A model generated the notes under the pieces. The model did no database searches. It was not told where the DNA came from and saw nothing but the letters and a program-made list of their open reading frames with translations. Source: an uncultured Traorella sp. (lineage in GTDB: Bacteria > Bacillota_I > Bacilli_A > Erysipelotrichales > Erysipelotrichaceae). From it: DNA of 64,000 nucleotides. This document shows positions 5,976 through 46,203 of this stretch, in pieces. Position numbers and translations under genes: made by a program. Location: the NCBI RefSeq assembly GCF_944327115.1, contig NZ_CALVGS010000041.1, forward strand, positions 3,931 to 67,930. Direction: 5' to 3'. How positions within the stretch are numbered: position 1 is the stretch's first letter; each line of letters starts with the position of its first letter.

Positions 5976-6057
5976 CCTTTGTACTTTTTGCCAGCATACT
6001 TGTATTTTTTATTTACATTCCAACGGCTTTTCGTTATAATGAGATGAGGTGATCACT

Positions 6058-7224: not shown

Positions 7225-7242
7225 ATAGAATTGCCTAAATAA

Positions 7243-7272
7243 AACACTATTGCATTTGCAATAGCGTTTTTC
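7243..7272. terminator. Bidirectional hairpin terminator between the convergent AraC and gatZ-like genes
   Basis: CTATTGCA / TGCAATAG stem, flanked by an A-run on one side and a T-run on the other. Confidence 0.6.
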
Positions 7273-7275
7273 ATA

Positions 7276-22684: not shown

Positions 22685-24490
22685 TTATTCAACAGTCACT
22701 GATTTCGCCAGATTTTTCGGCTGATCGATATCACATCCCATCTTTGCCGCCAGATGATGGGCAAGCAATTGGTAAGGTACGATCGAAACGATTCCCTGAA
22801 GGAATTCACTCACCTTCGGCAAGAAGATCACTTCATCTGCTTCTATGCTCTCATGATAGAGATCCTCACGAATCACAAGAAGTATGCGGGCACCTCGTGC
22901 CTTGACCTCTTTCATATTCGAGATGCTCTTATCCACCAGCTTCTCATCACTGATCAGAACCATGACCGGTGTATCCTCTTCAATCAAAGAAATTGTTCCA
23001 TGCTTCAGCTCTCCTGCCGGATAAGCAACCGCCTGGATATAGGTGATTTCCTTCAGCTTTAAGGCACCCTCCATGGACAAAGCATAATCAATGCCGCGTC
23101 CGATAAAGAAAACATTTTTCTTATTCATGATCGAAGCAACGAAACCATCTAAATTTGTATCACTGATCAGCTTATCAATATACATATCTATCTTTTGCAG
23201 CTGTTTTTCTATCGTATGCAGCTGCAGCGAAGAAAGCCGGTCCATACATGAATTCAATGCCAATAAACAGCATACAGCCACTTGAGCACAATAGGCCTTG
23301 GTCGTCGCAACCGATATTTCTACACCTGCCAGTGTCGGCAAGACATACTTGGCTTCTTTTTCAAGCGAACTTCCCTTTACATTGACAATCGCACAGCTAT
23401 CCACTCCCATCTTATTCACCATGCGAATGGCTGCCAGCGTATCCGCCGTTTCTCCTGACTGTGAGATACAGATGACCAATGTTTTCTCATCCAATATCGG
23501 TGAATTATAACGGAATTCACTGGCAACCTCACATTCACAGCGGATGCGGGCATATTTTTCAATCAGATTTTTCGCAAGGACCCCTGCATGATAAGCACTG
23601 CCGCAGGCAACAAAATAAATACAGTGATACTTTTTTAGATCGATCATCGTCTTTGAAAGCTCTTGTAAACTGTTTTTCATATAATGATGGATCGTATCCA
23701 TGACCACTCTTCCTTCTTCATGGATTTCCTTCAATAAGAAAGAATCATAACCACCCTTTTCAATCGTTGAAATATCCATCTCACTCTTTTGTACCTGCAC
23801 ATCCACACGATTCAGATCTGAGTCATAACATTCAATTTCTTGATTCGTGATCCTGACGATCTGATCTTCATCAATCGTGGCATAGTTACGTGTAAAACGA
23901 ATAAACGCACTGAGATCACTTGCCAGAAAATTACCCTCTTCACCGATTCCTAAGATCAGTGGTGAATCCTTACGCATACCGTAAATCACACCTTCTTCAT
24001 CCTCAAACATGATTGCAAACGCATAGCTTCCTTTTAATATCTTGGCAGCTTCCCGAAGAACCTTTAACTTATTTTTTTCACTTCGATATAGGATTGCCAG
24101 ACATGCACAGGCAACTTCACTGTCCGTTTCACTCTTAAAAACGATCCCTCTTTGTTCATACGCTTTTTTCAAAGCTGCCGCATTCTCGATGATACCATTA
24201 TGGACAAGCGTGACACCTTCTACCCGGTGCGGATGAGCATTGATCTCATTCGGTTCACCATGCGTCGCCCATCTTGTATGAGCGATACCACAAAAACTTT
24301 CAGGCTTATCCTTGATCTTCTTCTCAAGCTCACTGATCTTGCCCTTTGCTTTTATTATCTCAATTTGACCGCACTGAAAAGAAGCGATACCACTGGAATC
24401 ATATCCGCGGTATTCCAACGCCTTCAGCCCGCTCAACAAAACACCATGCGCACAAGGTCTGCTGCCGGCATAGCCAATTATTCCACACAT
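22685..24490 (-). CDS. glmS: Glutamine-fructose-6-phosphate aminotransferase
   Basis: MCGIIGY N-terminus with an AGGAGG RBS, two SIS domains, canonical C-terminus LAKSVTVE. The ORF-track extension to 24622 is the ribozyme leader, not coding sequence. Confidence 0.95.
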   Translation of the reverse strand: MCGIIGYAGSRPCAHGVLLSGLKALEYRGYDSSGIASFQCGQIEIIKAKGKISELEKKIKDKPESFCGIAHTRWATHGEPNEINAHPHRVEGVTLVHNGIIENAAALKKAYEQRGIVFKSETDSEVACACLAILYRSEKNKLKVLREAAKILKGSYAFAIMFEDEEGVIYGMRKDSPLILGIGEEGNFLASDLSAFIRFTRNYATIDEDQIVRITNQEIECYDSDLNRVDVQVQKSEMDISTIEKGGYDSFLLKEIHEEGRVVMDTIHHYMKNSLQELSKTMIDLKKYHCIYFVACGSAYHAGVLAKNLIEKYARIRCECEVASEFRYNSPILDEKTLVICISQSGETADTLAAIRMVNKMGVDSCAIVNVKGSSLEKEAKYVLPTLAGVEISVATTKAYCAQVAVCCLLALNSCMDRLSSLQLHTIEKQLQKIDMYIDKLISDTNLDGFVASIMNKKNVFFIGRGIDYALSMEGALKLKEITYIQAVAYPAGELKHGTISLIEEDTPVMVLISDEKLVDKSISNMKEVKARGARILLVIREDLYHESIEADEVIFLPKVSEFLQGIVSIVPYQLLAHHLAAKMGCDIDQPKNLAKSVTVE

Positions 24491-24509
24491 TATTATTTTC
24501 CTCCTATTA

Positions 24510-24645
24510 AATGAAATCATTTTTGTTTCAATGTTGATTTTGATTTTTGTATGATTTCTAACGATATTTGCATACCGCAGCAGTACCCGCCGAATCTTTC
24601 GATAACCTGCTGTCCTCGTCAACTAAACTAGTCCTGGCGCTCAAC
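24510..24645 (-). ncRNA. glmS ribozyme: glmS ribozyme (GlcN6P-dependent self-cleaving riboswitch)
   Basis: Minus-strand RNA: A|GCGCCAGGACUAGUUUAGUUGACGAGGACAGCAGGUUAUCGAAAGAUUCGGCGGGUACUGCUGCGG... This matches the conserved core (AGCGCCAG-ACU, GUUGACGAGGA, GGUUAUCGAA, UUCGGCGG) directly upstream of glmS. The predicted cleavage site lies between 24641 and 24640. Confidence 0.85.
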
Positions 24646-24689
24646 TAATATAAATTACGACCCTCCTCATTTATACTAATCTAGTCGTT

Positions 24690-33217: not shown

Positions 33218-33454
33218 ATGAGTGAGAAAGAAAAAGAAATTATTGCGGTATTAGAAAAGATCCGCCCTTATATTCAAAGAGATGGCGGTGATTTAGAATT
33301 TGTCAGCTTTAAGGATGGGATCGTTACGATCAAAATGCTGGGTGCCTGCAGCGATTGTTTAGCCTTGGATGATACGATTTCCATGGGTGTCGAAGCCCTT
33401 TTGCTGGAAGAAGTTGAAGGCGTCGTTGGTGTCCAGGTAGCACAGGCTTATTAA
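33218..33454 (+). CDS. NifU-like (C-terminal domain) Fe-S cluster protein
   Basis: IRPYIQRDGGDLEFV...MLGACSDC motif; 78 aa. Confidence 0.85.
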   Translation: MSEKEKEIIAVLEKIRPYIQRDGGDLEFVSFKDGIVTIKMLGACSDCLALDDTISMGVEALLLEEVEGVVGVQVAQAY

Positions 33455-33468
33455 ACATATCAGGCAGC

Positions 33469-33500
33469 AAAGCACTGATCATGGGTCAGTGCTTTTTTTC
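33469..33500 (+). terminator. Intrinsic terminator after the NifU-like gene
   Basis: AGCACTGA / TCAGTGCT stem followed by T7. Confidence 0.6.
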
Positions 33501-33601: not shown

Positions 33602-33629
33602 TTGAAATTATAAGAGAATTTGCTATAAA
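33602..33629 (+). promoter_or_regulatory. Candidate promoter of the GGDEF-led operon
   Basis: TTGAAA, 16 nt, TATAAA, about 50 nt upstream of the ATG at 33678. Confidence 0.4.
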
Positions 33630-33677
33630 ATAAATAATGATTTTTAAATATATATTTTTAATTCGAATGGGGCCAAT

Positions 33678-35582
33678 ATGAAAAAAGAAAAAAAGAGTAA
33701 TTTATTCAAATCAATGAGTATCACCATGTTATTGATTTTTTTAATGATAAGCGGATCTTTTGTTGCAGTAAGATGGATCAGCAAAATCGAAGAAGAACAA
33801 AGCTTTATGAAGCTTCATGAAGAAACAGATTATCTGGCAGAACATATTCAATTAAACATTGATAACGACCGCGGACAATTGGAAATCATTGCGGCAGTCA
33901 TTGCCAGAGCTGAAAGTTTCACAGATCAGATTTTATGGGATATTTTAGATTCTTACTCAAATATCGGATTGATTTCAAGACTGGAGCTGCTTTTGCCTGA
34001 TGATACCATCGTTACCCGTCATGGCGAGATCCGCATACAGGATTCTTTATCCTTTGATAAAGAAGCTGCATTAGGAAGCCATATCACAGACCTGGAAAAT
34101 GATTTCATAAATGACGGGCAAGCGATCTTACGTCATTATGTTCCCGTCATCCAAAACAATCAGATAACCGCCATGCTGTATGGAGTCATTGAAGTAGCTT
34201 CCCTGCCCAGCATTTTAATCAATGATCCCTATGACGGTGAAGCAGCTGCCTATCTCATGGAAGGTGAAACAGGTAATCTGATCGTTGATACATGGCATAG
34301 TGAATTAGGCAATCTTTGGGATATGGGTAAACGACAAATGGCTGATGGTTATGATTATGAGCAGTTGAAAGAAGGACTCATTAACGGTAAGTCAGATTAT
34401 GTCGTATTTGTATCCGAAACGATTGGCAAATATCTTTATTTCTATTATGAACCATTAGGAATCAATGACTGGCGGATTGCCCTCTCCGTACCCGAAGATG
34501 TCGTTTTTGAAAATTCTAACCTTGTTAAACATGTGACATCACTTTTTTTGGGATTTGAAATTATTGTTTTTATCATTTATTTCATTTGGATGATTACTTA
34601 CATAAAAAAAGAAACAAGAGAAAAACAGCTTCAGCTGGATATGATCAATGCTACGAATAATGTAGAGAAATATCTTTTCAATGCTCATGAAAACAGAAAT
34701 AATATTACGTTGGCATTGAAAGAAGTTGCTAAAATATCTCATGCCGAAGAAATATATTTATATATGAAAGAATCACAGATGCATATTTATAGCTGGCAAA
34801 AGAATGAGATCACTTATGCATCGCTTATGGAAAATGAAGTTCCGATCTCCCTGTTTTACTATTTTAAAAAAGGAAATCAGGATTTTATCTCATTTGATAG
34901 AGCTGAGATCAATCAACTATTAGGTAAAAAACACCCTTTACCGGTAAAGACCCTAGGTGTAATTTCTATCAGGGATACCGATAATCATATATGTGGTTTT
35001 TTGATGGTTGTCAATATGAGTCCACGTGAAAGGATCGCAGATTTTTTAAGAAATATCCGTTATAGCTTTAATATGTGTTACAACAATATCAGTACTTATA
35101 ACATTATTAAAGAATTTGGAGAAAAGGATATGTTATGCGGTGTTTATAATCGGAACCGCTTTGAAACGAATCTGATCAAATATCCTTCCCTTTACAAAAC
35201 TTCACTGGCCTGTATTTATATTGATGTGAATGGACTTCATGAATTAAATAATACACAAGGTCATGAGAGCGGTGATGAGATGCTTAAAGCGGTTGCTCAG
35301 ATGATTCGTGAAAATTTTGAGGCAGAACACACTTATCGTATCGGCGGTGATGAATTTATCATCTTTGTGATCGATACGCCGGAAGATGTGATCACAGAAA
35401 AAATAAAACAGCTGAAAGCAACGCTTAACTCTTTCGGCTACTCTATTTCTGTGGGTATGGAGTGGCAGACACAGGTGATTGATATGGACGATCTGGTACG
35501 CAGGGCTGAAAAGAAAATGTATGTTGAAAAAAAGAATTATTATAATGATAAAAATCACGATCGCCGGAAGAATCTCACATGA
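33678..35582 (+). CDS. Membrane sensor diguanylate cyclase (GGDEF domain)
   Basis: N-terminal TM segment, extracytoplasmic region of about 260 aa, second TM segment, cytoplasmic linker, then C-terminal GGDEF domain (DVNGLHELNNTQGHESGD, RIGGDEFIIF). No RxxD I-site is visible 5 residues upstream of GGDEF. Confidence 0.88.
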   Translation: MKKEKKSNLFKSMSITMLLIFLMISGSFVAVRWISKIEEEQSFMKLHEETDYLAEHIQLNIDNDRGQLEIIAAVIARAESFTDQILWDILDSYSNIGLISRLELLLPDDTIVTRHGEIRIQDSLSFDKEAALGSHITDLENDFINDGQAILRHYVPVIQNNQITAMLYGVIEVASLPSILINDPYDGEAAAYLMEGETGNLIVDTWHSELGNLWDMGKRQMADGYDYEQLKEGLINGKSDYVVFVSETIGKYLYFYYEPLGINDWRIALSVPEDVVFENSNLVKHVTSLFLGFEIIVFIIYFIWMITYIKKETREKQLQLDMINATNNVEKYLFNAHENRNNITLALKEVAKISHAEEIYLYMKESQMHIYSWQKNEITYASLMENEVPISLFYYFKKGNQDFISFDRAEINQLLGKKHPLPVKTLGVISIRDTDNHICGFLMVVNMSPRERIADFLRNIRYSFNMCYNNISTYNIIKEFGEKDMLCGVYNRNRFETNLIKYPSLYKTSLACIYIDVNGLHELNNTQGHESGDEMLKAVAQMIRENFEAEHTYRIGGDEFIIFVIDTPEDVITEKIKQLKATLNSFGYSISVGMEWQTQVIDMDDLVRRAEKKMYVEKKNYYNDKNHDRRKNLT

Positions 35583-35598
35583 AAGGAGTTGATGCGTC

Positions 35599-36294
35599 AT
35601 GAATGAAGTGCTTCGTCAGGAAAAGAAATTTCTGATATCGGCAGATCAGTATTATCAATACAGCCATTATTTTGAAAACATTCTGTCTTTAGACGCTCAT
35701 AGCCATGGAGATGGTTACGAGATTCGTTCTTTATATTTTGATTCCCTTGATGATCGGGATTTTCAGGAAAAAGAAGACGGTGTTGAAGTCCGTCGGAAGA
35801 TTCGCCTGAGAAATTATGGGGCAGACAGTCCTTTTGCAATGTTAGAAATGAAACAAAAACAAGGGATCTTACAGAAAAAACGTTCTTTAAAGATGAAACG
35901 CGAGGATGCTGGAAATTTAATGACAGGAGAATATTCAGTTCTATTACAGTATCCGGATGACTTTGCGGCAGAATGTTATGCTCTCATGAGCATGCATTGT
36001 TATCGCCCGGTCTGTGTGGTCAGTTATATGCGTAAGGCCTTTATCGCAAAAGAAAATAAGATAAGGATCACTTTTGATCATCATATTACCGCCAGTGAAT
36101 CGAATTTTGATATTTTCTCCAACGATTTAATCCAGAACAGCGTCTTGCATCCATATTTAGCAGTATTAGAAGTTAAATATAATGGCTTCTTATTGTCCTA
36201 TATCAAAGATACGATCAACCGGATCGACAAAAGCGAAACAGCACTCAGCAAATACTGCTTAGGAAGAACAATCGGAAAACATTATTTGTTTTAG
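35599..36294 (+). CDS. VTC-domain (polyphosphate-polymerase-like, triphosphate tunnel) protein
   Basis: Alternating charged beta-strand motifs RQEKKF, IRSLYFD, RRKIRLRNY, LEMKQK, RITFD, LEVKY; 231 aa; RBS AAAGGAG. Confidence 0.75.
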   Translation: MNEVLRQEKKFLISADQYYQYSHYFENILSLDAHSHGDGYEIRSLYFDSLDDRDFQEKEDGVEVRRKIRLRNYGADSPFAMLEMKQKQGILQKKRSLKMKREDAGNLMTGEYSVLLQYPDDFAAECYALMSMHCYRPVCVVSYMRKAFIAKENKIRITFDHHITASESNFDIFSNDLIQNSVLHPYLAVLEVKYNGFLLSYIKDTINRIDKSETALSKYCLGRTIGKHYLF

Positions 36295-36310
36295 AAAGGG
36301 AGGAATTGTC

Positions 36311-36988
36311 ATGAAAGATGTGTTGCGTTTAATTTTGGAACAGGGAACGGCTTTAAGTGTTGAAGAAATCATTTTACATATTATCTCTTCAGGCCTCATC
36401 GGTATTGCCATTTATATTTCTTACTGGTATACCCATATCGGTACTGCATACAGCAAGAAATTCAATGTTTCTTTAATTACGTTAACCGTTCTGACAGGTA
36501 CGGTCATGACGGTCATCGGTAATAATATTGCTTTATCGCTTGGTATGGTGGGTGCCTTATCTATCGTCCGTTTTAGGACAGCAATTAAAGATTCCCGTGA
36601 TACGACTTATATCTTCTGGGCGATCATCGTAGGTATCTGTTGTGGTGTCGGTGATTATCTGGTTGCCAGCGTAGGTACGATCGTTGTCTTTATCATTCTT
36701 TTGATCTTAGGACGCGTCCGCAATGAAAACCGTATTCTTTTGATCATAAAAGCCGCCCGTAATAATGAAACAGCTATTGAAAAGCTTGTGTTTGATTATT
36801 TTCATAACAAAGCCTTATTACGTGTCAAAAATACATCTCCGGAATCAATTGAATTTATTTATGAACTGTCAAGACGCACCTATGAGATCACTTATAAAAA
36901 AGAAAAAAGCATTACTCAGCTTCTTTATGAATTGGATCACGTTGACTATGTCAATATCGTGACTCAGAATGATGAAATAAGTGGATAG
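36311..36988 (+). CDS. DUF4956 family membrane protein
   Basis: Polytopic, with GALSIVRFRTAIKDSRDTTYIFWAI..G motif and a C-terminal soluble region of about 90 aa; RBS GGGAGG. Confidence 0.75.
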   Translation: MKDVLRLILEQGTALSVEEIILHIISSGLIGIAIYISYWYTHIGTAYSKKFNVSLITLTVLTGTVMTVIGNNIALSLGMVGALSIVRFRTAIKDSRDTTYIFWAIIVGICCGVGDYLVASVGTIVVFIILLILGRVRNENRILLIIKAARNNETAIEKLVFDYFHNKALLRVKNTSPESIEFIYELSRRTYEITYKKEKSITQLLYELDHVDYVNIVTQNDEISG

Positions 36989-36990
36989 TC

Positions 36991-38445
36991 ATGAAAAGCA
37001 AAATTATTTATATCTTAACGATCGTGTGTGTGTTGATTGCTTCTGTCACCTTTTATAGCATAGATATTTCTTCTCAGCGCATTCACCAGCATTTAGATGA
37101 ACGATGGCAACCATCAGAAGATGATGATACAGCCACCCATTTACCCATCGTTTCTATCCAAACAAACGGGCAAAAGATTCCCGGTTCGCGTATCATACAA
37201 GAAGACGGTACAGCCTATACAGAACTTTCAGATTCAATGAGTGAGTCCATCATTACCGATTTTACGCTCATTGACGGACAAAATGGCAAGAATCATATCA
37301 GTGATGAAGCAAGTGTAAAATCACTTGCAGATATTCATATCCGAGGAAATTCATCAAGATATTTCGACAAGAAATCTTATTCGATCCATCTGATTGATGA
37401 AGATGGCAAAGAAAATCCTCAATCACTCGCCGGTATGTCCGCTCATGATGAGTGGGTGCTCCATGGTCCCTTCTTAGATCGTTCTTACATCCGTAATTAT
37501 TTATGTATGAACATTGCCGGTGAAATCATGGAATATGCACCCAATGTCCGCTTTTGTGAACTTTGGATCGATGGTGAATATCAGGGCTTATATCTATTGA
37601 TGGAAACGATCAGTCGTGGTGAAGGCCGTATCGAAATAAACAAAACAAATGATAACAGTTATGTGACAAGCTTTATCGTACGCTGGGATCGTATCGGCAA
37701 AGGAGATCATGAATTAAATAACTTTACCTATTATACCTATGAAAGTGATCAGTCAGCCTTAGACATCCGGTATCCGGGAAACAATACATTGACTGCGGAA
37801 AAAGAAGAATATATCAGCCAACAGATCAGTCAAGTAGAAAAAATGTTGTATTCAATGAGCCTATGGGAAGAAAATCTCAGCAATTATCTTGATTTAGAGT
37901 CTTTTGCGGAATATTTTATTATCAATGAATTTTTTAGAAATATTGATGCCGGTCAATTTTCTACTTTTCTTTACAGCGATGTAAGAGGAAAGATCAAAAC
38001 AGCTGTATGGGATTTTAATAACTGTTGTGACAATAATGCTGACGGAATCAATAATGAAATTGGTTTTTCCATGCAGAATGGTATCTGGTTCAGCCAGCTT
38101 CTGAAAAATCGCAGTTTTGTTGCTTTGGTAGTGGAAAAGTATCATCAGCTGCGTGAGGGCCCTCTGTCGACCGATTATATATTAAATTATATTGATGAAA
38201 CGGATGCATGGCTGAAAGAAGCGATCATTCGCAATGATGAAGTATGGGGATATGTTTATGATTTAGAGAATTATGATATTTATAATTATTTAAGTCCGGT
38301 TGAAAGAAATATGGAAAGTCATGAAGAAGCAATTGAACAGCTAAAACATTTTATTGAAGAGCGTGGACAATGGCTGGATGAGCATATTGAATCTCTCTAT
38401 CAGTATTGTTCTGAATCAAAAAATGCAAATGAAATGTTAAGGTAG
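36991..38445 (+). CDS. cotH: CotH family atypical kinase, N-terminally membrane-anchored
   Basis: N-terminal TM segment (IIYILTIVCVLIASVTFY). The core IRNYLCMNIAGEIMEYAPNVRFCELWIDGEYQGLYLLMETI resembles CotH. Confidence 0.75.
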   Translation: MKSKIIYILTIVCVLIASVTFYSIDISSQRIHQHLDERWQPSEDDDTATHLPIVSIQTNGQKIPGSRIIQEDGTAYTELSDSMSESIITDFTLIDGQNGKNHISDEASVKSLADIHIRGNSSRYFDKKSYSIHLIDEDGKENPQSLAGMSAHDEWVLHGPFLDRSYIRNYLCMNIAGEIMEYAPNVRFCELWIDGEYQGLYLLMETISRGEGRIEINKTNDNSYVTSFIVRWDRIGKGDHELNNFTYYTYESDQSALDIRYPGNNTLTAEKEEYISQQISQVEKMLYSMSLWEENLSNYLDLESFAEYFIINEFFRNIDAGQFSTFLYSDVRGKIKTAVWDFNNCCDNNADGINNEIGFSMQNGIWFSQLLKNRSFVALVVEKYHQLREGPLSTDYILNYIDETDAWLKEAIIRNDEVWGYVYDLENYDIYNYLSPVERNMESHEEAIEQLKHFIEERGQWLDEHIESLYQYCSESKNANEMLR

Positions 38446-38454
38446 GTAATTGAG

Positions 38455-40557
38455 ATGAAAAAATTTTTATTAGGTGTATTTTCTATAGTTATCTGTATAT
38501 TCATATATATTTATGCGGTTTATTTCAAAGGCTTCTATATTGACCTTGATCCCCAGGCTCCTATTACTTCCTCTTTTCAAATTGAAGGGAAAGATATCCT
38601 TATCGTTCATGATGACGGCAAAACCGAAAAATTGATCATTAAGGGTGTCGATCTGCCAAGCACTGCCGTCAGCCATTATGCCGCTGATTATGCGATTGAT
38701 TATGATACCTATATGCGCTGGTTTGAGCTTATCAGTGATATGGGAGCTAATACGATTCGTATCTATACGATTTATAATGATGTATTTTATGACGCTTTTT
38801 ATGATTACAATATCCAACATGAAAAACCTCTGTATCTGCTTCAAGGGCTTCAGGTGAGCGAATGGGCCAATGATTCAAAAAGTGATGCCTATGGCAATGA
38901 ATTCTACAACAGCCTTAAAGAGGATGCGATCCAAGTCGTCGATGCCATTCACGGAAAACTCATAATGGGTGCCCATCAGCAAAAAGGCAGTGGTTTTTAT
39001 GACAAAGATGTGTCCCCCTGGGTCATGGGTTATATCATTGGCAATGAATGGAATGCGAAAACGATCGCATATACAAATGAACAGCATTATCCTGCTTCTT
39101 ATAAAGGAGAGTATATTTCCACAAATGATGAGGCAAATGCTTTTGAAGCAATGTTAGCAGATGTGATGGATGGCTTGATTAGTTATGAAAGCCATAAATA
39201 TAAGACACAGCGTCTTATCACATTTAATTCGACATATGATACCGATCCTTTTGAATATGATTCATTTTATGCAAGCCAGATGTTGAAGTTTGCCACGCTT
39301 GATATCAATCATTTTGTTAAAGAAAAGAATTATCAGAGCGGTCTGTTCGCATCCTATCATCTGTATGATTATTATGATCGATTTTATCAATATTTTTCTG
39401 ACGGACAAAAAGAAGCATTAGGAGAGATTCTTGAACATTTAGATACGACCAACCTATATACCACTTATACTTCCCTTTTAAATGAGTATCATAATGTCCC
39501 TGTCGTGATTTCCGGTTATAGCTATTCCAGCTCCCGTGGCAGTGATTCTTCTTATGGAGGCCTCAATGAAACCCAACAGGGAGAAGCTCTTGTTTCTGCT
39601 TATCAGGATCTTTTAAAATATACGAGCGGAGCTTTTATCGACTCATGGCAGGATACATGGGAGAAGCGAATGTGGAACACCAGTTTTGCAATCGATCTTT
39701 CCCAAAATAAAAACTGGCATGACATTCAAAGTGAAAGCAGTGGTTATGGTCTTTTATCATATGTTTCTAACCACAATACGATCAATGGCAGCATGGAAGA
39801 CTGGCCAAGTAGTTATTTGATCCAGGAGTCAGAGAATGTTTCTCTTTATGCCTTTTATGATGAAAAAGGAATTTATTTATATGTCGATGGCATATCTCAT
39901 CTGCCTGATGATATTTCTATTCCTATTGATGTAACTATGAATAGCGGAACCACGATCGATGCCGACAGCGAAGAACGATTTGAACGTCCTGCTGACTTTC
40001 TCATTCAGATTTCTGGCTCAGCAGCCAAAATACTGGTACACAGCCGTTATGATGCCTTACGTGAAAACTATCTCTATCAGATAGAACGAATCGACCCTTT
40101 TGCTGAGTATCCAAGTGTTGATGATCCGCATTTTAATGACATCTACATGATCTGTGAAAACCGAACGGTCATTGAACGAAACCATACTGAAGAAGAGCTC
40201 TATGAAGCACGGAAAAACCAGGCGTATCTGACAGGTCAGTTGATCGAGGCGTCTGAAGATGCCGGTACGCTTGCCGACTATGCCTTTCAAGATGATGGAC
40301 TTGAGCTGAGAATTCCTTGGCAGATGCTTAACTTTTCTGATCCGATCCATGCCATGATCCATGACGATTACTATCTTTATTACGGGGTCGAACAGCTTCA
40401 GATCTCAGAAATATATCTGGGCATCCTGAAAAATGAACAAGGAGTGATCGAAATGGCATCTTTGCCGCTAGAAGTAAATAAATCCTATGAATATGAGGAA
40501 TATCTAAAAGAATCCTATGAGATCGTTAAAGCGTATTGGAGTGATCTTTCATGGTAA
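38455..40557 (+). CDS. Membrane-anchored 700-aa protein with a glycoside-hydrolase-like (TIM barrel) N-terminal region
   Basis: N-terminal TM segment; IKGVDLPS, GANTIRIYT and YIIGNEWN motifs resemble clan GH-A strands. The C-terminal ~250 aa are unassigned. Confidence 0.5.
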   Translation: MKKFLLGVFSIVICIFIYIYAVYFKGFYIDLDPQAPITSSFQIEGKDILIVHDDGKTEKLIIKGVDLPSTAVSHYAADYAIDYDTYMRWFELISDMGANTIRIYTIYNDVFYDAFYDYNIQHEKPLYLLQGLQVSEWANDSKSDAYGNEFYNSLKEDAIQVVDAIHGKLIMGAHQQKGSGFYDKDVSPWVMGYIIGNEWNAKTIAYTNEQHYPASYKGEYISTNDEANAFEAMLADVMDGLISYESHKYKTQRLITFNSTYDTDPFEYDSFYASQMLKFATLDINHFVKEKNYQSGLFASYHLYDYYDRFYQYFSDGQKEALGEILEHLDTTNLYTTYTSLLNEYHNVPVVISGYSYSSSRGSDSSYGGLNETQQGEALVSAYQDLLKYTSGAFIDSWQDTWEKRMWNTSFAIDLSQNKNWHDIQSESSGYGLLSYVSNHNTINGSMEDWPSSYLIQESENVSLYAFYDEKGIYLYVDGISHLPDDISIPIDVTMNSGTTIDADSEERFERPADFLIQISGSAAKILVHSRYDALRENYLYQIERIDPFAEYPSVDDPHFNDIYMICENRTVIERNHTEEELYEARKNQAYLTGQLIEASEDAGTLADYAFQDDGLELRIPWQMLNFSDPIHAMIHDDYYLYYGVEQLQISEIYLGILKNEQGVIEMASLPLEVNKSYEYEEYLKESYEIVKAYWSDLSW

Positions 40558-41627
40558 TCAATCTTCTATTATATGTTTATCTGTTTTCATGTTTTGCACT
40601 TTTCATCTTTAATCTCTTATATATGATCTTATCATCTTTTTTAAATAAAAGATGTCATCAAAAATGCTCACAATATGAAACACAGATCATGAATGAATCC
40701 ATATATCTTCAGACACATTCCAAACTTTCTATCTCCCATGAGAGATATTTATTAAAAAGATTAAGAAATATCAATGATTTGATCGCTTTTAACAAGGCAC
40801 TTGATCATTTTGAAAAGAAGTCTGTTGAGCCCTATCTAACACAATTGCTTCCTATTTGGCAGCAGTTAGCTGTTTCTTATCTGAAAAAAGATAATATGAA
40901 AAAAGCTTTCTTTGCCTATGTAATATCAAAACATGGTTTATATTATGGTAAAGAATATCGTCCTCTGATGCAGCTGCTTCTGCAATTTTTAGACCATTCT
41001 ACCATTTATTGCCGGGAGAATGTATTCAAAGCCTTATGTACCTTGGGGAATATTCAAGCGGTTGAAAATATGATGAATATCATAAATGATAAAGAATGGT
41101 TCCATCACCAAAAGCTTATCGCAGATAATCTGAGTGTTTTTCAAGGTGATCAAGAATTACTTATGACAAGGCTCTGGCAGCATGTCAATGAATGGAATGA
41201 TCATTTGATGGTTGCCGTTGTCCAGTTTATCTCACAGAAGAATGGTAATTTCCAACAGATATTTCTTCCTTATTTACGTTCGCCGCAAACTTCTTTAGAG
41301 GTCCGGTTAGCCATGATTCGTTATTATCGCCTTCATCCTTATGAGCCTGTCCGTGAAATTCTTTATTCATTCATAGACGATACCATGATACAGGATGTCA
41401 GCTTAACGATCGTCAGTGCCTTTGCCTTAGATCACTATCCGGGCAATAAAACTATTGAACTGTTAAAGAAGGCCCTTTGTCACCATAACTGGTATGTACG
41501 TCGTAATGCGGCCGCTTCCCTTGTTCATTTAAAAGTTGCGAAAAAAGATTTAAAGGATATCTACGAAGGCAAAGACCCGTATGCCAAAGAAATCTTGACT
41601 TATATGTATAAAAAACAGGAGGTTTAA
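40551..41627 (+). CDS. HEAT-repeat protein with an N-terminal TM segment
   Basis: N-terminal hydrophobic segment. Repeats such as IYCRENVFKALCTLG and HNWYVRRNAAASLVHL. Overlaps the upstream gene by 7 nt. Confidence 0.6.
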   Translation: MVINLLLYVYLFSCFALFIFNLLYMILSSFLNKRCHQKCSQYETQIMNESIYLQTHSKLSISHERYLLKRLRNINDLIAFNKALDHFEKKSVEPYLTQLLPIWQQLAVSYLKKDNMKKAFFAYVISKHGLYYGKEYRPLMQLLLQFLDHSTIYCRENVFKALCTLGNIQAVENMMNIINDKEWFHHQKLIADNLSVFQGDQELLMTRLWQHVNEWNDHLMVAVVQFISQKNGNFQQIFLPYLRSPQTSLEVRLAMIRYYRLHPYEPVREILYSFIDDTMIQDVSLTIVSAFALDHYPGNKTIELLKKALCHHNWYVRRNAAASLVHLKVAKKDLKDIYEGKDPYAKEILTYMYKKQEV

Positions 41628-41628
41628 A

Positions 41629-43026
41629 ATGAAAACGTTTGAATTATTTTTAAATGTCGTAAATATATTCTTTTTCATTTATCTGCTGTTGTATTCTACC
41701 TATTTATTTGTATCGGTTCTTATTGGAGCCAATCATCTGTATAAAAAGGAACAGATGAATGTTATCCGGAATCAGCTGACCCATGACTATTATCTTCCGA
41801 TCTCTTTACTTGTTCCTGCATATAATGAAGAAATAACGATCGTCGACAGTATTCGCTCTCTTGTCAATTTAGATTATCGTCTATATGAAATTATCATTAT
41901 TGATGACGGTTCTAAAGATAAAACCGTTCAGAAACTATTGGAAGCTTTTAACTTAACAGAGGTATCACGTCCCATTCATATGTCTTTAAGCTGTGCACCT
42001 TTGAAAAAAATCTATGAGGGATCTGTTAACCATGTTTCTATTACTTTGATCAGCAAAGAAAATGGCGGTAAAGGTGATTCTTTAAATATGGGAATCAATG
42101 CCTCCCGCTTTCCTTATTTTATCTGTATCGATGCCGACAGCATGCTTCAAAAAGATGCTTTAGAAAAAATCATCCAGCCGGTCATGGAAGATGAGAAGGT
42201 GATTGCGGTAGGCGGATTGATCAGGGCAGCCCAATGTGCTGAATTGAAAGATGGGAAGGTCATAAGATATCACATGCCGATGAATCCTATTGTTTGTATG
42301 CAGGCTGTTGAATATGATCGTTCTTTTTTAGCTTCGCGAATATTAATGGACCAATTCAATGGAAATCTCATTATTTCAGGAGCTTTTGGATTGTTTAAAA
42401 AGGATATTGTCATTGCCTGCGGCGGATATGATTCATCAACTTTAGGTGAGGATATGGAACTGGTGGTCCGTCTGCATGTTTTCTGTCGGAATAATCTGAT
42501 TGATTATGCCATCCGCTATGAACCGCAAGCGATCTGCTGGTCACAGGTACCGGAATCGATGAAAGATTTATGTAAGCAGCGGAGAAGATGGCATTTAGGT
42601 CTTTTTCAATCTATGACACGTCATTATAAGATCTTTATGAACTTTAAGTTTGGTTTAGTAAGTTTTATTTCTTATATGTATTATTTATTTTTTGAACTTT
42701 TATCGTCCATTATTGAAGTATTTGGCATTACGGTCATGATACTATCCGGGTTATTGGGATATTTAAATATTCCGTTTATGATTGAATTTTTTCTTTTATA
42801 TTCGATCTATGGTGCTGTGCTGACGATGACTGCTTTTTTCCAAAGAATTTATATCCAGCATTTGAAGCTTACATTCACAGACGTGCTAAAAGCAATCCTA
42901 TCATGTATCCTAGAAAATGTTTTTTATCGCTATATCTTATCATTTGTAAGAGTTACTGCCTTTATCGGTTATAAAAAAAGAAAACATGTATGGGGTTCTA
43001 TTCAAAGATATTCGCAATCTTCATAA
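41629..43026 (+). CDS. Processive family-2 glycosyltransferase (PgaC/IcaA/NodC/BcsA-like polysaccharide synthase)
   Basis: VPAYNEE, IIIDDGSKD, CIDADS, GAFGLFKK, GEDMEL and QRRRWHLG (Q-x-x-R-W) motifs, with TM segments at both ends. Confidence 0.88.
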   Translation: MKTFELFLNVVNIFFFIYLLLYSTYLFVSVLIGANHLYKKEQMNVIRNQLTHDYYLPISLLVPAYNEEITIVDSIRSLVNLDYRLYEIIIIDDGSKDKTVQKLLEAFNLTEVSRPIHMSLSCAPLKKIYEGSVNHVSITLISKENGGKGDSLNMGINASRFPYFICIDADSMLQKDALEKIIQPVMEDEKVIAVGGLIRAAQCAELKDGKVIRYHMPMNPIVCMQAVEYDRSFLASRILMDQFNGNLIISGAFGLFKKDIVIACGGYDSSTLGEDMELVVRLHVFCRNNLIDYAIRYEPQAICWSQVPESMKDLCKQRRRWHLGLFQSMTRHYKIFMNFKFGLVSFISYMYYLFFELLSSIIEVFGITVMILSGLLGYLNIPFMIEFFLLYSIYGAVLTMTAFFQRIYIQHLKLTFTDVLKAILSCILENVFYRYILSFVRVTAFIGYKKRKHVWGSIQRYSQSS

Positions 43027-43052
43027 AAAGTGCATCAGAATGCACTTTTTTA
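43025..43052. terminator. Bidirectional terminator between the GT2 and yunB-like genes
   Basis: AAGTGCA / TGCACTT stem flanked by an A-run and a T-run. Confidence 0.6.
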
Positions 43053-43619
43053 ATGATATGGAAATATCTGTGGTACTTCTCCTTGAATATATTCCAGGGC
43101 CAAAGGTATCTTCTCTGAGATCGAAAGCTCATTTTTCTCAAAACCAAATAAGACATTTCCCTTGCATTCCACATTCAGAATCAGCTCAATAAAGGCATTA
43201 TTGATACCTAAGGCCGTTGTTTTGATGTTGTAGCGGGCAATGATGCGGTTGGATATCAAAAAGGTAGCTGAAACATCAGGACCCAGATGCTGAAAGAAAA
43301 CAACTCCCGTAAAATATCCCAGTGGTATGGAAGCTTCATAGACATCCGGTATTGATTCATTGAGCTGTTCATTGACCCCTATGATCCAAATGTTAAGAGC
43401 GTTGGCATCAATGCTGACCTGATCCTCCCTTTTAACCACAAAGCCTTCAGGTACTTCCAAAGTCTTGATGCTGTTCATGATCTCGCTTATGACCTGTTCA
43501 TGAAAATAAGCCTTTGCCTGTATTTGAAAAACAGGCTGCAGCTGCATATAAAACATACCTGACAATAAGATCAACATACCAAGGATCATCCATAAAAGAT
43601 TCTTTTTTTTAATTTTCAT
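43050..43619 (-). CDS. yunB: YunB-like sporulation protein
   Basis: N-terminal TM segment. IPLGYFTG....LGPDV....ALGINNAFIELILNVE....IPLALEYIQGEVP matches the YunB pattern. Confidence 0.65.
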   Translation of the reverse strand: MKIKKKNLLWMILGMLILLSGMFYMQLQPVFQIQAKAYFHEQVISEIMNSIKTLEVPEGFVVKREDQVSIDANALNIWIIGVNEQLNESIPDVYEASIPLGYFTGVVFFQHLGPDVSATFLISNRIIARYNIKTTALGINNAFIELILNVECKGNVLFGFEKNELSISEKIPLALEYIQGEVPQIFPYH

Positions 43620-44974: not shown

Positions 44975-45254
44975 AACGAATAACTCCTTTCTGTTGGTTA
45001 CATCAATCCGCATCCTGTATCATTATTTATAGGATCAGCATTATATCCATATCTACGATCCTTTACCTATTTAGATTATAAGCATGATTTTTTGTTTGTA
45101 AAGAATCTTTTCAGATAAAATTATAAAAAAACTTAATTCATTACTACCACCTTATAACTTGATTTTATCATATTAATTATTATGACAAAAGGCTTTATTT
45201 TATTTATATTTTAGTTATTATGTAAGTGAAGGAGATAAGAAAGGAGAATAGCTT

Positions 45255-45824
45255 ATGAAAGAAATGGTAAGTTTAAAAAAAATCCTTATTGGTTTAACTG
45301 CCTTGATCATTGCTGTTTTCATATATGCTTTCTTCTTTACAGGAACAAAGACGCAGCCCTCAGGTATGACAATAGATCAAATCAATGAAATGTATCATAC
45401 TTCTTTTCCTGATACTATTGAAACAACTTCAATAGGAGAACAGGTGGACAAAGCTCTGTTTGGCAAAAAAGTACCTGTTCATGTGGTAGTTTTAGTTACC
45501 GGTGATTATTACTGTGAATTTGAAATGACAAAAGGTGAGAATACTTTTTCATCACCAAAAAGTGAATATCTAAAATATGAATTTGAAATAAATGTAGATG
45601 ATATTCTTATCAAAGCAAGGCAATATGACTATGATACTTTAAATACTGAAGATTCTTATAAACCTACTTATATCTTAATTTTTGATCATCAAGATACTGC
45701 TTTCTATGTAAAGATTAGTCCAATGAGTGACTCTTTGTTCACATATGAACAGGATGAAGCAATCAAACCAGAAGAATTAGGGCTTTTGGAAGATTTAATT
45801 CATGAAAATATTCTTGGAATATAG
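45255..45824 (+). CDS. Hypothetical membrane-anchored protein
   Basis: N-terminal TM segment (ILIGLTALIIAVFIYAFFF); RBS AAAGGAG; no recognised domain. Confidence 0.55.
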   Translation: MKEMVSLKKILIGLTALIIAVFIYAFFFTGTKTQPSGMTIDQINEMYHTSFPDTIETTSIGEQVDKALFGKKVPVHVVVLVTGDYYCEFEMTKGENTFSSPKSEYLKYEFEINVDDILIKARQYDYDTLNTEDSYKPTYILIFDHQDTAFYVKISPMSDSLFTYEQDEAIKPEELGLLEDLIHENILGI

Positions 45825-45882
45825 AACCTTGTACAATCTATACCAAAAATATGTTTTATTTTCAAATAAGAGAAAGGTTAAA

Positions 45883-46203
45883 ATGCGTAAAATATTCTGT
45901 TTAATAATATTATTATTTGTTGGAGGGGCCTTCCTTTTCTTCACAAAGCAAAATAATTCCGATAATATCCGGCCTTATATCTATCCAATTCAACCTGGTA
46001 CTAAAGAATGGAGTGAATTGGAAAATTTGGATGAAATGATTGATTCCACGACGATACCTAAAAAAATTCTAGAAGAAATGGATACAGCTTCTTTGGTCGA
46101 AACATGTATCTCTCATCCATTAATGATTGATCCGGCAGCTTTTAATAATTATCAATTATGGTTTGAGGCACTGCTATCCAAAACAATGCATGAAATGAAT
46201 TGA
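45883..46203 (+). CDS. Hypothetical exported protein, possibly truncated
   Basis: MRKIFCLIILLFVGGAFLFF signal/anchor. A short out-of-frame ORF continues just beyond the stop (46197..46268). Confidence 0.4.
   Translation: MRKIFCLIILLFVGGAFLFFTKQNNSDNIRPYIYPIQPGTKEWSELENLDEMIDSTTIPKKILEEMDTASLVETCISHPLMIDPAAFNNYQLWFEALLSKTMHEMN

Follow-up and report, generated by a model that had tools for sequence, protein, structure and literature searches.

The window analysed here, a 64,000-nt stretch of contig NZ_CALVGS010000041.1 from an uncultured Traorella sp. (GCF_944327115.1), contains an operon of seven genes (g1 to g7, positions 33678-43026) in which the gene for a membrane sensor diguanylate cyclase precedes a cassette coding for a VTC-type protein, a DUF4956 protein, a CotH-family kinase, a large extracytoplasmic protein called X, a HEAT-repeat protein and a GT2 synthase. 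Comparison with related loci indicates that these six genes (VTC-DUF4956-CotH-X-HEAT-GT2) are the conserved unit, which is found in hundreds of gut Firmicute species and was previously seen only as the locus NELoc-2. Taken as a whole, the system would represent an exopolysaccharide machine of the synthase-dependent type that is linked to c-di-GMP and has a phosphorylation module added on, a reading to which we give slightly better than even chances.

Organization of the operon

All seven genes are located on the + strand and are separated by gaps of 16, 16, 2, 9, -7 and 1 nt, and a Shine-Dalgarno sequence (GGAG/AGGAGG-type) was found ahead of each of the seven start codons, which bears out the tightly packed operon proposed in the first-pass annotation. 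The 5' boundary is marked by an intrinsic terminator at 33469..33500 on the + strand (hairpin 33469-33495, 12-bp stem, T7 tail, -18.6 kcal/mol), which ends the NifU gene (78 aa, 33218-33454) located upstream. This terminator is followed by a candidate sigma-70-type promoter (33602..33631, + strand; TTGAAA-18-TAAAAT, 10/12 matches) that represents a consensus match only. At the other end, the hairpin AAAAAGTGCATCAGAATGCACTTTTTT (about 43027..43049, -13.1 kcal/mol) lies between g7 and a convergent yunB-like gene (43050-43619, - strand) and is a plausible bidirectional terminator. Hence, both flanking terminators are present as described before, and no convincing one was found inside the operon, where the only + strand matches are three weak ones that have 5-7-bp stems and fall within coding sequence; across the whole region there are 9 terminator-like sites vs 7.0 +/- 3.5 in shuffles. 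Spacing, ribosome-binding sites and flanking terminators are consistent with a single transcript for the seven genes. Furthermore, the Pfam/NCBIfam profile search agrees with the initial domain assignments, i.e. GGDEF, VTC, DUF4956, CotH, HEAT and GT2 (QRRRW).

Conservation and modularity of the cassette

At least 572 species-representative genomes code for a relative of X, and the X family comprises 425 clusters at 50% identity (E<=1e-30). In a gene-neighbourhood survey of the kind suggested by the first-pass annotation, which covered the 80 best loci of X relatives, the complete order V-D-C-X-H-T (VTC, DUF4956, CotH, X, HEAT, GT2), on one strand and with small gaps, was found in 63 independent genomes, and the remainder are mostly cut by contig ends. 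Because the order recurs in so many independent genomes, it must be regarded as more than chance.

The expectation that the combination matches no described system does not hold. In C. perfringens the same six genes in the same order were published in 2010 as NELoc-2, a locus of chicken-pathogenic strains that was left unexplained (PMC2879425; PMC11677781), and the Traorella cassette corresponds to it in gene order, sizes and annotation. Moreover, the set of CotH, polyphosphate polymerase and DUF4956 has been described as accessory to the Pel loci of Gram-positive bacteria, including streptococci (PMC7112168; PMC12345266).

The two halves of the cassette also occur separately. Three metagenome loci, Paenibacillus cellulosilyticus and Deinococcus radiophilus (here with a TPR-X fusion) have X-HEAT-GT2 without the other three genes, and the VTC/DUF4956/CotH triad is placed inside a heteropolysaccharide cluster on the Pseudobutyrivibrio plasmid pNP95. 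Judged from gene content, the cassette splits naturally into VTC-DUF4956-CotH and X-HEAT-GT2. Of the earlier division into a triad and a PgaC-like module, the triad holds, while the second unit has to be redrawn as the X-HEAT-GT2 trio. Since three different glycan pathways share the triad, a glycan or matrix is indicated as its target.

The distribution also bears on the earlier suggestion of a spore or cell-surface layer, which would here be a polymer of the spore surface or cell wall made during sporulation. In Bacillus, CotH acts as a kinase of the spore coat (PMC7821199). The sporulation protein YunB is encoded next door in the window, but its gene is convergent with the operon and separated from it by the terminator. 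Because the cassette or the triad occurs in genera that are not known to form spores, we regard such a role as very improbable: the complete cassette is present in Gordonibacter (Actinomycetota) and Planococcus, neither of which is known as a spore former, and the triad occurs in the non-sporulating streptococci.

The synthase and its putative partners

Gene g7 (41629-43026, + strand) encodes a processive, PgaC/IcaA-like membrane GT2 synthase of 465 aa with matches to Pfam Glycos_transf_2, Glyco_tranf_2_3 and Chitin_synth_2, and at least 90% of the 69 homologues retain each of its motifs DDGS, DAD, GED and QRRRW. The best NCBIfam match, PgaC_IcaA, reached 160.6 bits vs a cut-off of 422, so far under this equivalog cut-off that the product is not assignable from it. 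A GlcNAc-based, PNAG/chitin-like polymer is most likely, though not established. A beta-glucan is also possible, because there is no CE4 deacetylase gene in the window, the nearest folds of X are GH157 (a beta-1,3-glucanase family) and GH2, and a GH16 gene neighbours one distant related locus. The flanks of the related loci have no nucleotide-sugar genes in common, which fits a housekeeping UDP-sugar as substrate.

Protein X (g5, 38455-40557, + strand; 700 aa) has no sequence match in Pfam, NCBIfam or PDB. Its AF2 model (pLDDT 89.4, pTM 0.89) predicts a membrane-anchored extracytoplasmic protein with a GH-A-like TIM barrel and beta-sandwich domains, and Foldseek returned GH157 (9g4n, E 6e-12) as best match, followed by GH2 and GH5. 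The initial description as GH-like is therefore right with regard to the clan GH-A barrel of the model, but the catalytic nucleophile is absent: the beta4 motif G-N-E198-W is mostly retained among homologues, whereas the beta7 position aligned to E224 of GH157 is G354 instead of the nucleophile Glu. Without it, X may not be an enzyme. In S. intermedius, a fourth Pel accessory protein with a TM segment and a TIM barrel is an active hydrolase (PMC12345266). An N-terminal TM helix was found in 74 of 81 X proteins, and the charge bias (N-in 71 vs 0) predicts an N-in/C-out orientation.

The HEAT protein g6 (40551-41627, + strand; 358 aa, Pfam HEAT_2 1.4e-8) is a single-pass membrane protein whose family profile matches alphaRep/PBS-type HEAT proteins, down to 1e-26. 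With its TM helix at residues 2-20 and a family charge bias of C-in 65 vs 4, the HEAT domain is predicted to be cytoplasmic. The protein is the likely partner of the GT2 synthase, and the genes of both overlap in most loci (gap -4 nt). Furthermore, a natural fusion TM-X-TM-HEAT of 1099 aa, with the GT2 gene after it, exists in loci L091/L092; it confirms the predicted topology and links X physically to the HEAT protein.

The VTC, DUF4956 and CotH triad

The VTC-type triphosphate-tunnel protein g2 (35599-36294, + strand; 231 aa, Pfam VTC 9e-44 over the full length) has no predicted TM helix and is a putative soluble polyphosphate polymerase. Its family profile matches the catalytic domain of yeast Vtc4 (3g3q, E 2.4e-4), and the invariant residues R6, K10, R69, R71 and K85 coincide in the alignment with basic residues of this structure, which we take to be the catalytic tunnel residues R196, K200, R264, R266 and K281.

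The second triad member, g3 (36311-36988, + strand; 225 aa), is a DUF4956/MgtC-like membrane protein (Pfam DUF4956 9e-14; MgtC match of 9e-6, under cut-off) with five predicted helices and an ACT-like domain at the C terminus. The AF2 model is of low confidence (pLDDT 67), and the best structural matches of its C-terminal domain are the MgtC C-terminal domains 2lqj and 7qa5 (E about 8e-3). Residues 84-98 form a loop, SIVRFRTAIKDSRDT, that hardly varies among homologues. The protein resembles MgtC and not any known channel. VTC and DUF4956 genes are always adjacent in related loci, and no fusion of them was found among the 80 loci.

This constant adjacency and the invariance of the residues aligned with the Vtc4 tunnel would also suit a scheme in which VTC and DUF4956 make polyphosphate and place it on the cell surface as a separate product, an anionic partner or cross-linker of the exopolysaccharide, with CotH priming or anchoring it. 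Pel, with which the triad travels, is a cationic polymer. In yeast, the VTC complex couples polyphosphate synthesis to transport across the membrane (PMC10657179). However, DUF4956 is unrelated to the transmembrane domain of that complex and is no demonstrated channel, there is no deacetylase here that would render the polymer cationic, and deletion of the VTC homologue in S. intermedius caused no aggregation phenotype (PMC12345266). We therefore consider surface polyphosphate quite improbable.

Gene g4 (36991-38445, + strand) encodes a membrane-anchored CotH-family kinase of 484 aa (Pfam CotH 4.5e-65). D319 and D341 align with the two Asp residues of B. cereus CotH (5jd9), and their spacing corresponds to D228 and D251 in B. 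subtilis; at least 90% of the 73 homologues retain both. In the g4 family, Ser consistently takes the place of the catalytic-loop Asn of CotH. All but one of the 73 homologues have the N-terminal TM helix, and the charge bias is N-in 53 vs 11, from which a kinase domain on the cell exterior (N-in/C-out) is predicted.

The characterised CotH enzymes are all Ser/Thr protein kinases (PMC7821199), which would be in line with a regulatory role: the triad would leave the polymer itself unmodified and could tune its amount, with CotH phosphorylating proteins (the synthase complex, X, surface or host proteins) and VTC/DUF4956 adjusting cellular phosphate, polyphosphate or ATP in an MgtC-like manner. 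Regulation of Pel by protein phosphorylation was proposed by Whitfield et al. (PMC7112168), and S. intermedius mutants lacking the CotH or the DUF4956 gene had altered Pel levels and half the aggregation, with Pel increased in the DUF4956 mutant and decreased in the CotH mutant rather than abolished (PMC12345266). These phenotypes of the Pel-linked version also speak for the exopolysaccharide reading preferred here. MgtC, moreover, has been tied to phosphate and ATP homeostasis (PMC12345266). Nevertheless, this explanation seems rather unlikely to us. The CotH domain is predicted outside, whereas the catalytic domain of the synthase and the HEAT domain are inside; the triad accompanies three unrelated glycan pathways without a common protein partner; and CotB and CotG, the protein substrates, are limited to spore formers.

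The sensor diguanylate cyclase and linkage to c-di-GMP

The first gene, g1 (33678-35582, + strand), codes for a membrane sensor diguanylate cyclase of 634 aa consisting of a TM helix (about 13-31), an extracytoplasmic domain of about 255 aa, a second TM helix (about 289-307), a linker of about 170 aa and the GGDEF domain (residues 484-621, Pfam GGDEF 2.8e-19). The motif is intact (RIGGDEF), the RxxD I-site is absent, and the sensor domains have no Pfam match.

Among the related loci, a GGDEF gene is found directly upstream of the cassette in only 13 of 59 informative cases, most of which have only the GGDEF domain in common with g1, and C. perfringens employs a sigma/anti-sigma pair instead (PMC2879425; PMC11677781). 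In addition, g1 is interrupted by an IS91-family insertion in the conspecific contig L086 and frameshifted (T7-to-T6) in another one, L087, with g2-g7 intact in both; therefore, g1 is dispensable for keeping the cassette. By these comparisons the cyclase gene is lineage-specific, and of the seven-gene unit assumed at first, six genes stand as conserved and the cyclase does not. One could go further and regard g1 as a mere neighbour that is co-oriented by coincidence with a functional unit of six genes. This is doubtful, since the 16-nt gap between g1 and g2 has neither a terminator nor a promoter match, two distant genomes (L035 and L026) have full-length orthologues of g1 (610-632 bits) next to the cassette, at different positions, and in L093 an RR-GGDEF gene is located directly upstream of H-T-X (HEAT, GT2, X). 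Moreover, a gene for an SBP-TM-degenerate GGDEF-EAL protein follows just downstream of the cassette in 29 of the 59 loci, and one or the other type of c-di-GMP gene occurs at 33 of all 80.

The interpretation as a machine for an envelope polymer that is linked to c-di-GMP, already put forward in the first-pass annotation, is strengthened by this flanking of 33 loci and is our best hypothesis, in which the phosphoryl or polyphosphate chemistry is inferred. In the six cassette proteins, neither PilZ nor an I-site was identifiable by Pfam as a c-di-GMP receptor, and a search of the window and of six related loci gave no c-di-GMP riboswitch; a receptor is presumed in what follows.

Proposed function

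According to this hypothesis, the GT2 synthase would build its polymer from a common UDP-sugar on the inner side of the membrane and extrude the chain through its own transmembrane part, with the HEAT protein as obligate partner on the cytoplasmic side and X outside the membrane, where it might bind, trim or pass on the nascent chain. The cytoplasmic VTC enzyme would make polyphosphate or a phosphoanhydride product at the MgtC-like DUF4956 protein, and the outward-facing CotH may phosphorylate the polymer or an adjacent matrix or wall component. An extracytoplasmic cue sensed by g1 would cause the cyclase to raise c-di-GMP and thereby switch the machine on. Hence, this operon of a gut Traorella joins a c-di-GMP-making sensor to a conserved cassette that most probably makes a sugar polymer of the cell surface and modifies it with phosphate.

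Operon layout and host locus

The open reading frames of the cluster were found exactly as the first-pass annotation had claimed, i.e. as seven tightly packed genes on the + strand: the GGDEF gene g1 (33678-35582), the VTC gene g2 (35599-36294), the DUF4956 gene g3 (36311-36988), the CotH gene g4 (36991-38445), g5 for the 700-aa protein that we call X (38455-40557), the HEAT gene g6 (40551-41627) and the GT2 gene g7 (41629-43026). The intergenic gaps from g1 to g7 amount to 16, 16, 2, 9, -7 and 1 nt, and a Shine-Dalgarno-like sequence is located 5' of all seven start codons. The flanking terminators that had been claimed are also present. Upstream, a hairpin with a 12-bp stem and a T-run (33469-33495) ends a 78-aa NifU gene, and a promoter-like site (33602-33631) lies between it and g1; downstream, between g7 and a convergent yunB-like gene, lies a hairpin with flanking A-run and T-run (approximately 43027-43049). 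Terminator-like matches within g1-g7 are weak, have stems of 5-7 bp and all lie in coding sequence; with 9 sites seen versus 7.0 +/- 3.5 in shuffled sequence they show no excess, which is in line with the claimed lack of an internal terminator.

The convergent gene across the bidirectional terminator (43050-43619, - strand) encodes a homologue of the sporulation protein YunB, hence the host is probably spore-forming. The g3 product has 100% identity to an NCBI protein assigned to "uncultured Traorella sp." (Erysipelotrichaceae). A recent horizontal transfer into the genome was considered and rejected, because the GC content is flat (0.36-0.38) over the cluster and its flanks and the same locus, with the same housekeeping genes on either side, occurs at 98-99.5% nucleotide identity in three other conspecific contigs. 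Elsewhere in the window, a local GC dip (0.288 versus approximately 0.37 around it, 45000-45999) covers a 189-aa ORF without Pfam match (45255-45824). A glmS ribozyme (Rfam RF00234, 74.9 bits; 24503-24652, - strand) is situated upstream of a 645-aa ORF (22685-24622), 9 kb from the operon, and is the sole Rfam match in the window.

The synthase trio

The Pfam searches agree with the earlier assignments of GGDEF, VTC, DUF4956, CotH, HEAT and GT2 domains; g6 and g7 matched HEAT_2 and GT2, respectively. In g7 the motifs DDGS, DAD, GED and QRRRW are each at least 90% conserved among 69 homologues, and TM helices are present, hence the motif set and the membrane-embedded part of a processive GT2 enzyme are both found. 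The top NCBIfam match of g7, PgaC_IcaA (TIGR03937), reached 160.6 bits and thus missed the equivalog cut-off of 422.3 by far.

Protein X has no match in Pfam (E<=0.01), NCBIfam or the PDB (phmmer). In its structure model (pLDDT 89.4) a TM helix at the N-terminus precedes a (beta/alpha)8 barrel and beta-sandwich domains, and the nearest folds in Foldseek are GH157 (E 6e-12), GH2 and GH5, i.e. clan GH-A; the family profile also places X with GH157 (E 0.009). Across 81 genome sequences, the acid/base motif G-x-E198-W on beta4 shows at least 90% conservation; among the 29 sequences of alignment A1, 16 have E and 8 have D at this position. The beta7 nucleophile is absent: E224 of GH157 aligns to G354, a position occupied by Gly or Ser in most members. 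This sets X apart from canonical retaining GH-A enzymes. Hence, the earlier label "GH-like" holds for the predicted barrel fold and fails for the nucleophile. X could act in binding or hand-over, or as an enzyme with another mechanism; if it acts on a GlcNAc polymer, substrate-assisted catalysis is conceivable.

N-terminal TM helices occur in 74 of 81 X homologues and in 71 of 74 HEAT homologues, with a charge bias that predicts the X domain outside and the HEAT domain inside the cell. This topology is confirmed by a natural 1099-aa fusion, TM-X-TM-HEAT, in two metagenome contigs (L091, 8001-11300; L092, 297-3596), in which a TM helix (residues 749-767) lies between the two parts and the GT2 gene follows with a 4-nt overlap, without the triad of VTC, DUF4956 and CotH genes. 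The fusion also demonstrates that the two proteins are parts of one assembly. In most loci the HEAT and GT2 genes likewise overlap by 4 nt, which suggests translational coupling. Our literature search found no paper on the X-HEAT-GT2 trio and no functional study of HEAT and GT2 combined with c-di-GMP.

Sugar-nucleotide genes are not recurrent near the cassette loci (the cassette being g2-g7 and its counterparts), which makes a homopolymer built from a housekeeping UDP-sugar the probable product. GlcNAc is the favoured candidate because of the PgaC/IcaA and chitin-synthase affinities of g7, while a beta-glucan stays in consideration in view of the GH157/GH2 folds of X and a GH16 neighbour. This neighbour, an SLH-anchored protein, is encoded next to a triad-less HEAT-GT2-X set in the related contig L089 (8163-9698); GH16 is a family rich in beta-glucanases, which may hint at a beta-glucan in some lineages.

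The VTC, DUF4956 and CotH triad

Pfam identified VTC in g2, DUF4956 together with a weak MgtC match in g3, and CotH in g4. The g2 protein (231 aa) comprises the VTC domain alone, without SPX and without a VTC-type TM domain. Its family profile matches the catalytic domain of yeast Vtc4 (3g3q, E 2.4e-4), and the invariant R6, K10, R69, R71 and K85 line up with basic positions in 3g3q, which we take to be the catalytic tunnel residues R196, K200, R264, R266 and K281 of Vtc4. By this tunnel domain and its aligned basic residues, g2 is a putative polyphosphate (polyP) polymerase; no bacterial VTC-domain member is known to synthesise polyP. The g3 model is of low confidence (pLDDT 67, pTM 0.42) and shows five helices and an ACT-like domain nearest to the C-terminal domains of MgtC, this ACT/MgtC-like C-terminal domain being its sole interpretable part. 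A basic loop of g3, SIVRFRTAIKDSRDT, is nearly invariant. The g3 search gave at least 8000 matches at E<=0.001 compared with 781 for X at E<=1e-5, hence the DUF4956 family looks far larger than the cassette. A solitary DUF4956 gene, without VTC or CotH, lies beside a TolC-family gene on a Hymenobacter volaticus plasmid (L085, 6797-7465).

The g4 protein matches Pfam CotH at 4.5e-65 and aligns to B. cereus CotH (5jd9). Its catalytic residues were taken from this alignment and from PMC7821199: D319 and D341, each at least 90% conserved, occupy the positions of D228 and D251 of B. subtilis CotH, at which mutation abolishes the activity of that enzyme (PMC7821199). The g4 family has Ser in place of the catalytic-loop Asn. 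By domain and by both essential Asp residues, g4 qualifies as a candidate CotH atypical kinase. An N-terminal TM helix is present in 72 of 73 CotH homologues, and the charge bias predicts the domain outside the cell. Among the 80 loci compared we found no V-D, D-C or other fusion (V, VTC; D, DUF4956; C, CotH), and in the literature searched no functional study of DUF4956 or of the "polyphosphate polymerase domain" and no paper giving the triad a mechanism.

That polyP would be made at the membrane and used outside is suggested by three features: the kinase is predicted to face outward, the VTC tunnel is conserved, and V and D always adjoin each other. Two points stand against this reading: DUF4956 is MgtC-like with no evident channel, and the CotH enzymes characterised so far phosphorylate proteins (PMC7821199). 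The latter would suit the rival view that the triad acts as a regulatory protein kinase, which we consider unlikely. That surface polyP is itself the product would be in keeping with the invariant tunnel residues of g2; the lack of an evident channel speaks against it, and we rate it somewhat lower still.

Distribution and modularity

Scanning GTDB with one genome for each species gave at least 572 stretches with X relatives, and the full HMMER search resolved the X family into 425 clusters at 50% identity (E<=1e-30). The 80 loci that we compared are the closest of the at least 572 relatives; distant loci were sampled separately. In phmmer searches with the window proteins, 63 of these 80 best loci had the full order V-D-C-X-H-T (H, HEAT; T, GT2) on one strand with small gaps, and the incomplete ones were mostly cut by contig ends. 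Hence, the neighbourhood survey bears out that the linkage is kept in related genomes, which comprise Lachnospiraceae, Oscillospiraceae, Christensenellales, Erysipelotrichaceae, Clostridium and Eggerthellaceae (Gordonibacter). The full cassette is also present on a Planococcus maritimus plasmid, and full or near-full versions with X at 28% identity were found in L090, a contig that ends inside the HEAT gene, and in L094/L095.

The two halves of the cassette also occur apart. X-HEAT-GT2 without the triad was found on plasmid pRadio2 of Deinococcus radiophilus, with X fused to a TPR-annotated region, in Paenibacillus cellulosilyticus (as X-X'-HEAT-GT2) and in three metagenome loci; one further contig (L096) has an orphan X. 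Conversely, the triad without the trio is located within a heteropolysaccharide cluster with GT2, GT4, acyl- and pyruvyl-transferase genes on the Pseudobutyrivibrio plasmid pNP95, and it has been reported alongside pelDEADAFG (PMC7112168, PMC12345266). The window therefore joins a core synthase trio with a portable triad.

Some neighbouring features deserve mention. In the D. radiophilus locus (L082, 7527-9953) the X-like barrel is part of an 808-aa tetratricopeptide-repeat-annotated protein, followed by HEAT and GT2 without triad; in diderm bacteria, the export of exopolysaccharides involves TPR scaffolds such as PgaA, BcsC and PelB. A membrane-anchored protein of approximately 303 aa, absent from the window, is encoded directly 5' of VTC in 14 of 59 loci (for example L081, 4201-5127), often overlapping the VTC start codon; it has no above-threshold Pfam family and a weak match to a xylose-isomerase-like TIM barrel (2.2e-5), and it may represent a seventh cassette member. 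A DivIVA-like protein of approximately 171 aa is encoded on the same strand approximately 18 nt past the GT2 gene in L040 (8806-9321) and 8 other loci.

Linkage to c-di-GMP

The g1 protein matches Pfam GGDEF (2.8e-19) with an intact motif, RIGGDEF, and is a putative diguanylate cyclase; its sensor domains gave no Pfam match even at E<=1. A GGDEF gene stands immediately upstream of the cassette in 13 of the 59 informative loci. Clustering of flanking ORFs further revealed a protein of 600-680 aa in which an SBP-like domain and a TM helix are followed by degenerate GGDEF and EAL domains, encoded directly downstream on the same strand in 29 of the 59; one or the other c-di-GMP gene occurs in 33 loci. 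Full-length g1 orthologues (610-632 bits) abut the cassette downstream in contig L035 and divergently upstream in L026, and in L093 a response-regulator GGDEF gene precedes HEAT-GT2-X. Hence, the c-di-GMP link is recurrent, though the particular gene differs among loci. The SBP-GGDEF-EAL protein is not encoded in the window. Its representative in L042 (7495-9327) lies just 3' of the GT2 gene, has the degenerate motif SDRGF and an extracytoplasmic SBP-like domain, and has counterparts in 28 other loci; with its LapD-like layout, the protein is a candidate receptor or phosphodiesterase for c-di-GMP in the cassette.

The g1 gene is disrupted in two conspecific contigs in which g2-g7 are intact. 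In L086, an IS91-family insertion of approximately 1.68 kb interrupts g1 at approximately 33794-33801; in L087, a T7 to T6 change at 34543-34549 causes a frameshift. The L086 element (5806-7484; Zn_Tnp_IS91 and Y2_Tnp) lies approximately 40 codons past the g1 start, and the two BLAST pieces share 8 bp, a possible target-site duplication. In L087, g1 is broken into ORFs of 288 and 330 aa exactly at the second TM helix, which could reflect slipped-strand (phase-like) variation or an assembly error. These disruptions would fit g1 as a mere neighbour of the cassette; the c-di-GMP genes at 33 loci argue the other way, and we regard such a chance association as improbable. The Pfam search found no recognisable c-di-GMP receptor domain in g2-g7. 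Riboswitch control was considered and rejected, as Rfam gave no match near the operon or in six related loci.

Precedents and relation to known systems

The arrangement had been presented as matching no described exopolysaccharide system. This does not hold, as there is a precedent for the six-gene combination and another for the triad. The first is NELoc-2 of C. perfringens, reported by Lepp et al. (2010) with VTC (232 aa), a "tubulin/FtsZ" membrane protein (226), a resolvase followed by a further VTC and 226-aa gene, CotH (497), a hypothetical protein (685), HEAT (377) and a "chitin synthase" GT2 (466 aa) (PMC2879425). A 2024 study re-annotated the locus with polyphosphate polymerase domain, CotH kinase, HEAT and glycosyltransferase genes, and reported that 78% of isolates carry a gene of the polysaccharide deacetylase family (PMC11677781). 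Judged by order, size and annotation only, the window has the same series (231, 225, 484, 700, 358 and 465 aa), whereas NELoc-2 has the duplicated VTC/membrane pair around the resolvase, a sigma/anti-sigma pair instead of a GGDEF gene at its head, and is strain-variable and associated with necrotic enteritis. No C. perfringens locus was among the best 80 of the at least 572 X-relative stretches from GTDB representatives.

The second precedent is the Pel accessory set, in S. intermedius SIR_1594-1591, with CotH, polyP polymerase, DUF4956 and a DUF4832 hydrolase at the Pel locus, to which bifidobacteria add a DGC/PDE gene (PMC7112168, PMC12345266). Here, too, the same triad is contiguous, adjoins a synthase-dependent exopolysaccharide operon and is accompanied by a fourth protein with TM helix, TIM barrel and beta-sandwich. 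But the order is C-V-D there and V-D-C in the window, X, analogous in layout, lacks the DUF4832 Pfam match of the Pel fourth gene, and the Pel synthase (PelF GT4, PelG, PelD/E, PelA deacetylase) differs from GT2 with HEAT. Pel-type domains were found neither in g1-g7 nor in the neighbouring genes, and the cluster is not contiguous with pelDEADAFG. In S. intermedius, deletion of the CotH or DUF4956 gene changed the quantity of Pel and cut aggregation in sputum medium by more than half, deletion of the VTC gene had no detectable effect, and the TIM-barrel protein is an active hydrolase (PMC12345266). The same 2025 paper did not find the three-gene synteny beyond Pel loci (PMC12345266), which the present loci contradict.

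Other systems share single features. Like pgaABCD/icaADBC, the window has a small synthase-dependent operon with an extracytoplasmic barrel protein and a processive membrane GT2 (D, D, D, QxxRW) with PgaC_IcaA as top NCBIfam match, and PgaCD is under c-di-GMP control. Unlike these operons, g1-g7 lack PgaD/IcaD, the CE4 deacetylase PgaB/IcaB and the PgaA porin (Pfam, NCBIfam) and have a HEAT partner and the phosphate triad instead. B. subtilis ydaJKLMN and Listeria pssA-E, which we had considered as relatives, were set aside, as X and HEAT come without BcsB, GH8 and a degenerate-GGDEF receptor (Pfam). With the eukaryotic VTC complex (3g3q) the triad shares the homologous tunnel domain and the pairing of the enzyme with a membrane protein, but SPX and the DUF202 TM domain are absent and the partner is MgtC-like. 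Phosphoethanolamine cellulose (BcsG, bcs) is a precedent for such decoration, in that a polymer made by a synthase receives a phosphate-containing group from an enzyme outside the cytoplasm; BcsG itself, an alkaline-phosphatase-fold transferase with a lipid donor, is unrelated.

Bacillus CotH (5jd9) shares with g4 the fold and both essential Asp residues, but g4 differs in its membrane anchor, its predicted outward domain and the Asn to Ser exchange. The spore-coat location and the CotB/CotG substrates of Bacillus CotH do not carry over: the anchor is found in 72 of 73 family members, and the cassette occurs in Gordonibacter and Planococcus, which to our knowledge are not spore formers. Hence, the spore layer suggested earlier as a product, which the YunB neighbour might recommend, was rejected on taxonomic grounds and is very improbable.

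Proposed function and significance

Taken together, the arrangement has precedent, is very widespread and is modular in a way not recognised earlier. We lean slightly towards a synthase-dependent exopolysaccharide machine with phosphate chemistry from the triad and c-di-GMP input from g1. In this scheme GT2 with its cytoplasmic HEAT partner would polymerise and extrude the chain, X would handle it outside, the triad would add phosphate chemistry, and g1 would be the c-di-GMP source in the Traorella lineage. The c-di-GMP-controlled envelope polymer machine proposed earlier thus gains from the c-di-GMP genes at 33 loci and the conserved cassette, and loses from the disruption of g1 in two conspecific contigs. 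A bolder version, which we think rather doubtful, is a portable extracellular phosphorylation module: a bacterial equivalent of the eukaryotic VTC complex would make polyP at the membrane and pass it to the outer face, where the anchored CotH kinase would phosphorylate the exopolysaccharide of the neighbouring genes. CotH might use polyP directly or after conversion, with Pel, the X-HEAT-GT2 polymer or a heteropolysaccharide as targets.

X relatives extend across at least 572 species-level gut genomes, with the full cassette in most of the 80 loci compared and also on a plasmid of Planococcus, and the comparison joins three literatures, on the NELoc-2 "pathogenicity locus", on the CotH/polyP/DUF4956 genes at streptococcal and clostridial Pel loci and on bacterial VTC-domain proteins. 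It leads us to hypothesise that X-HEAT-GT2 is a self-sufficient new synthase trio, that at least three glycan pathways share the triad as a transferable module for decoration or regulation, and that c-di-GMP often provides the input. Should the phosphate chemistry hold, it would represent a new type of matrix polymer modification and might show the power source for kinases outside the cell, both of which would be relevant to how gut anaerobes form biofilms and colonise their host and to their virulence. Should the portable-module reading be true, it would explain kinase action where ATP is absent and establish phosphate-decorated matrix polymers as a new class in gut Firmicutes.
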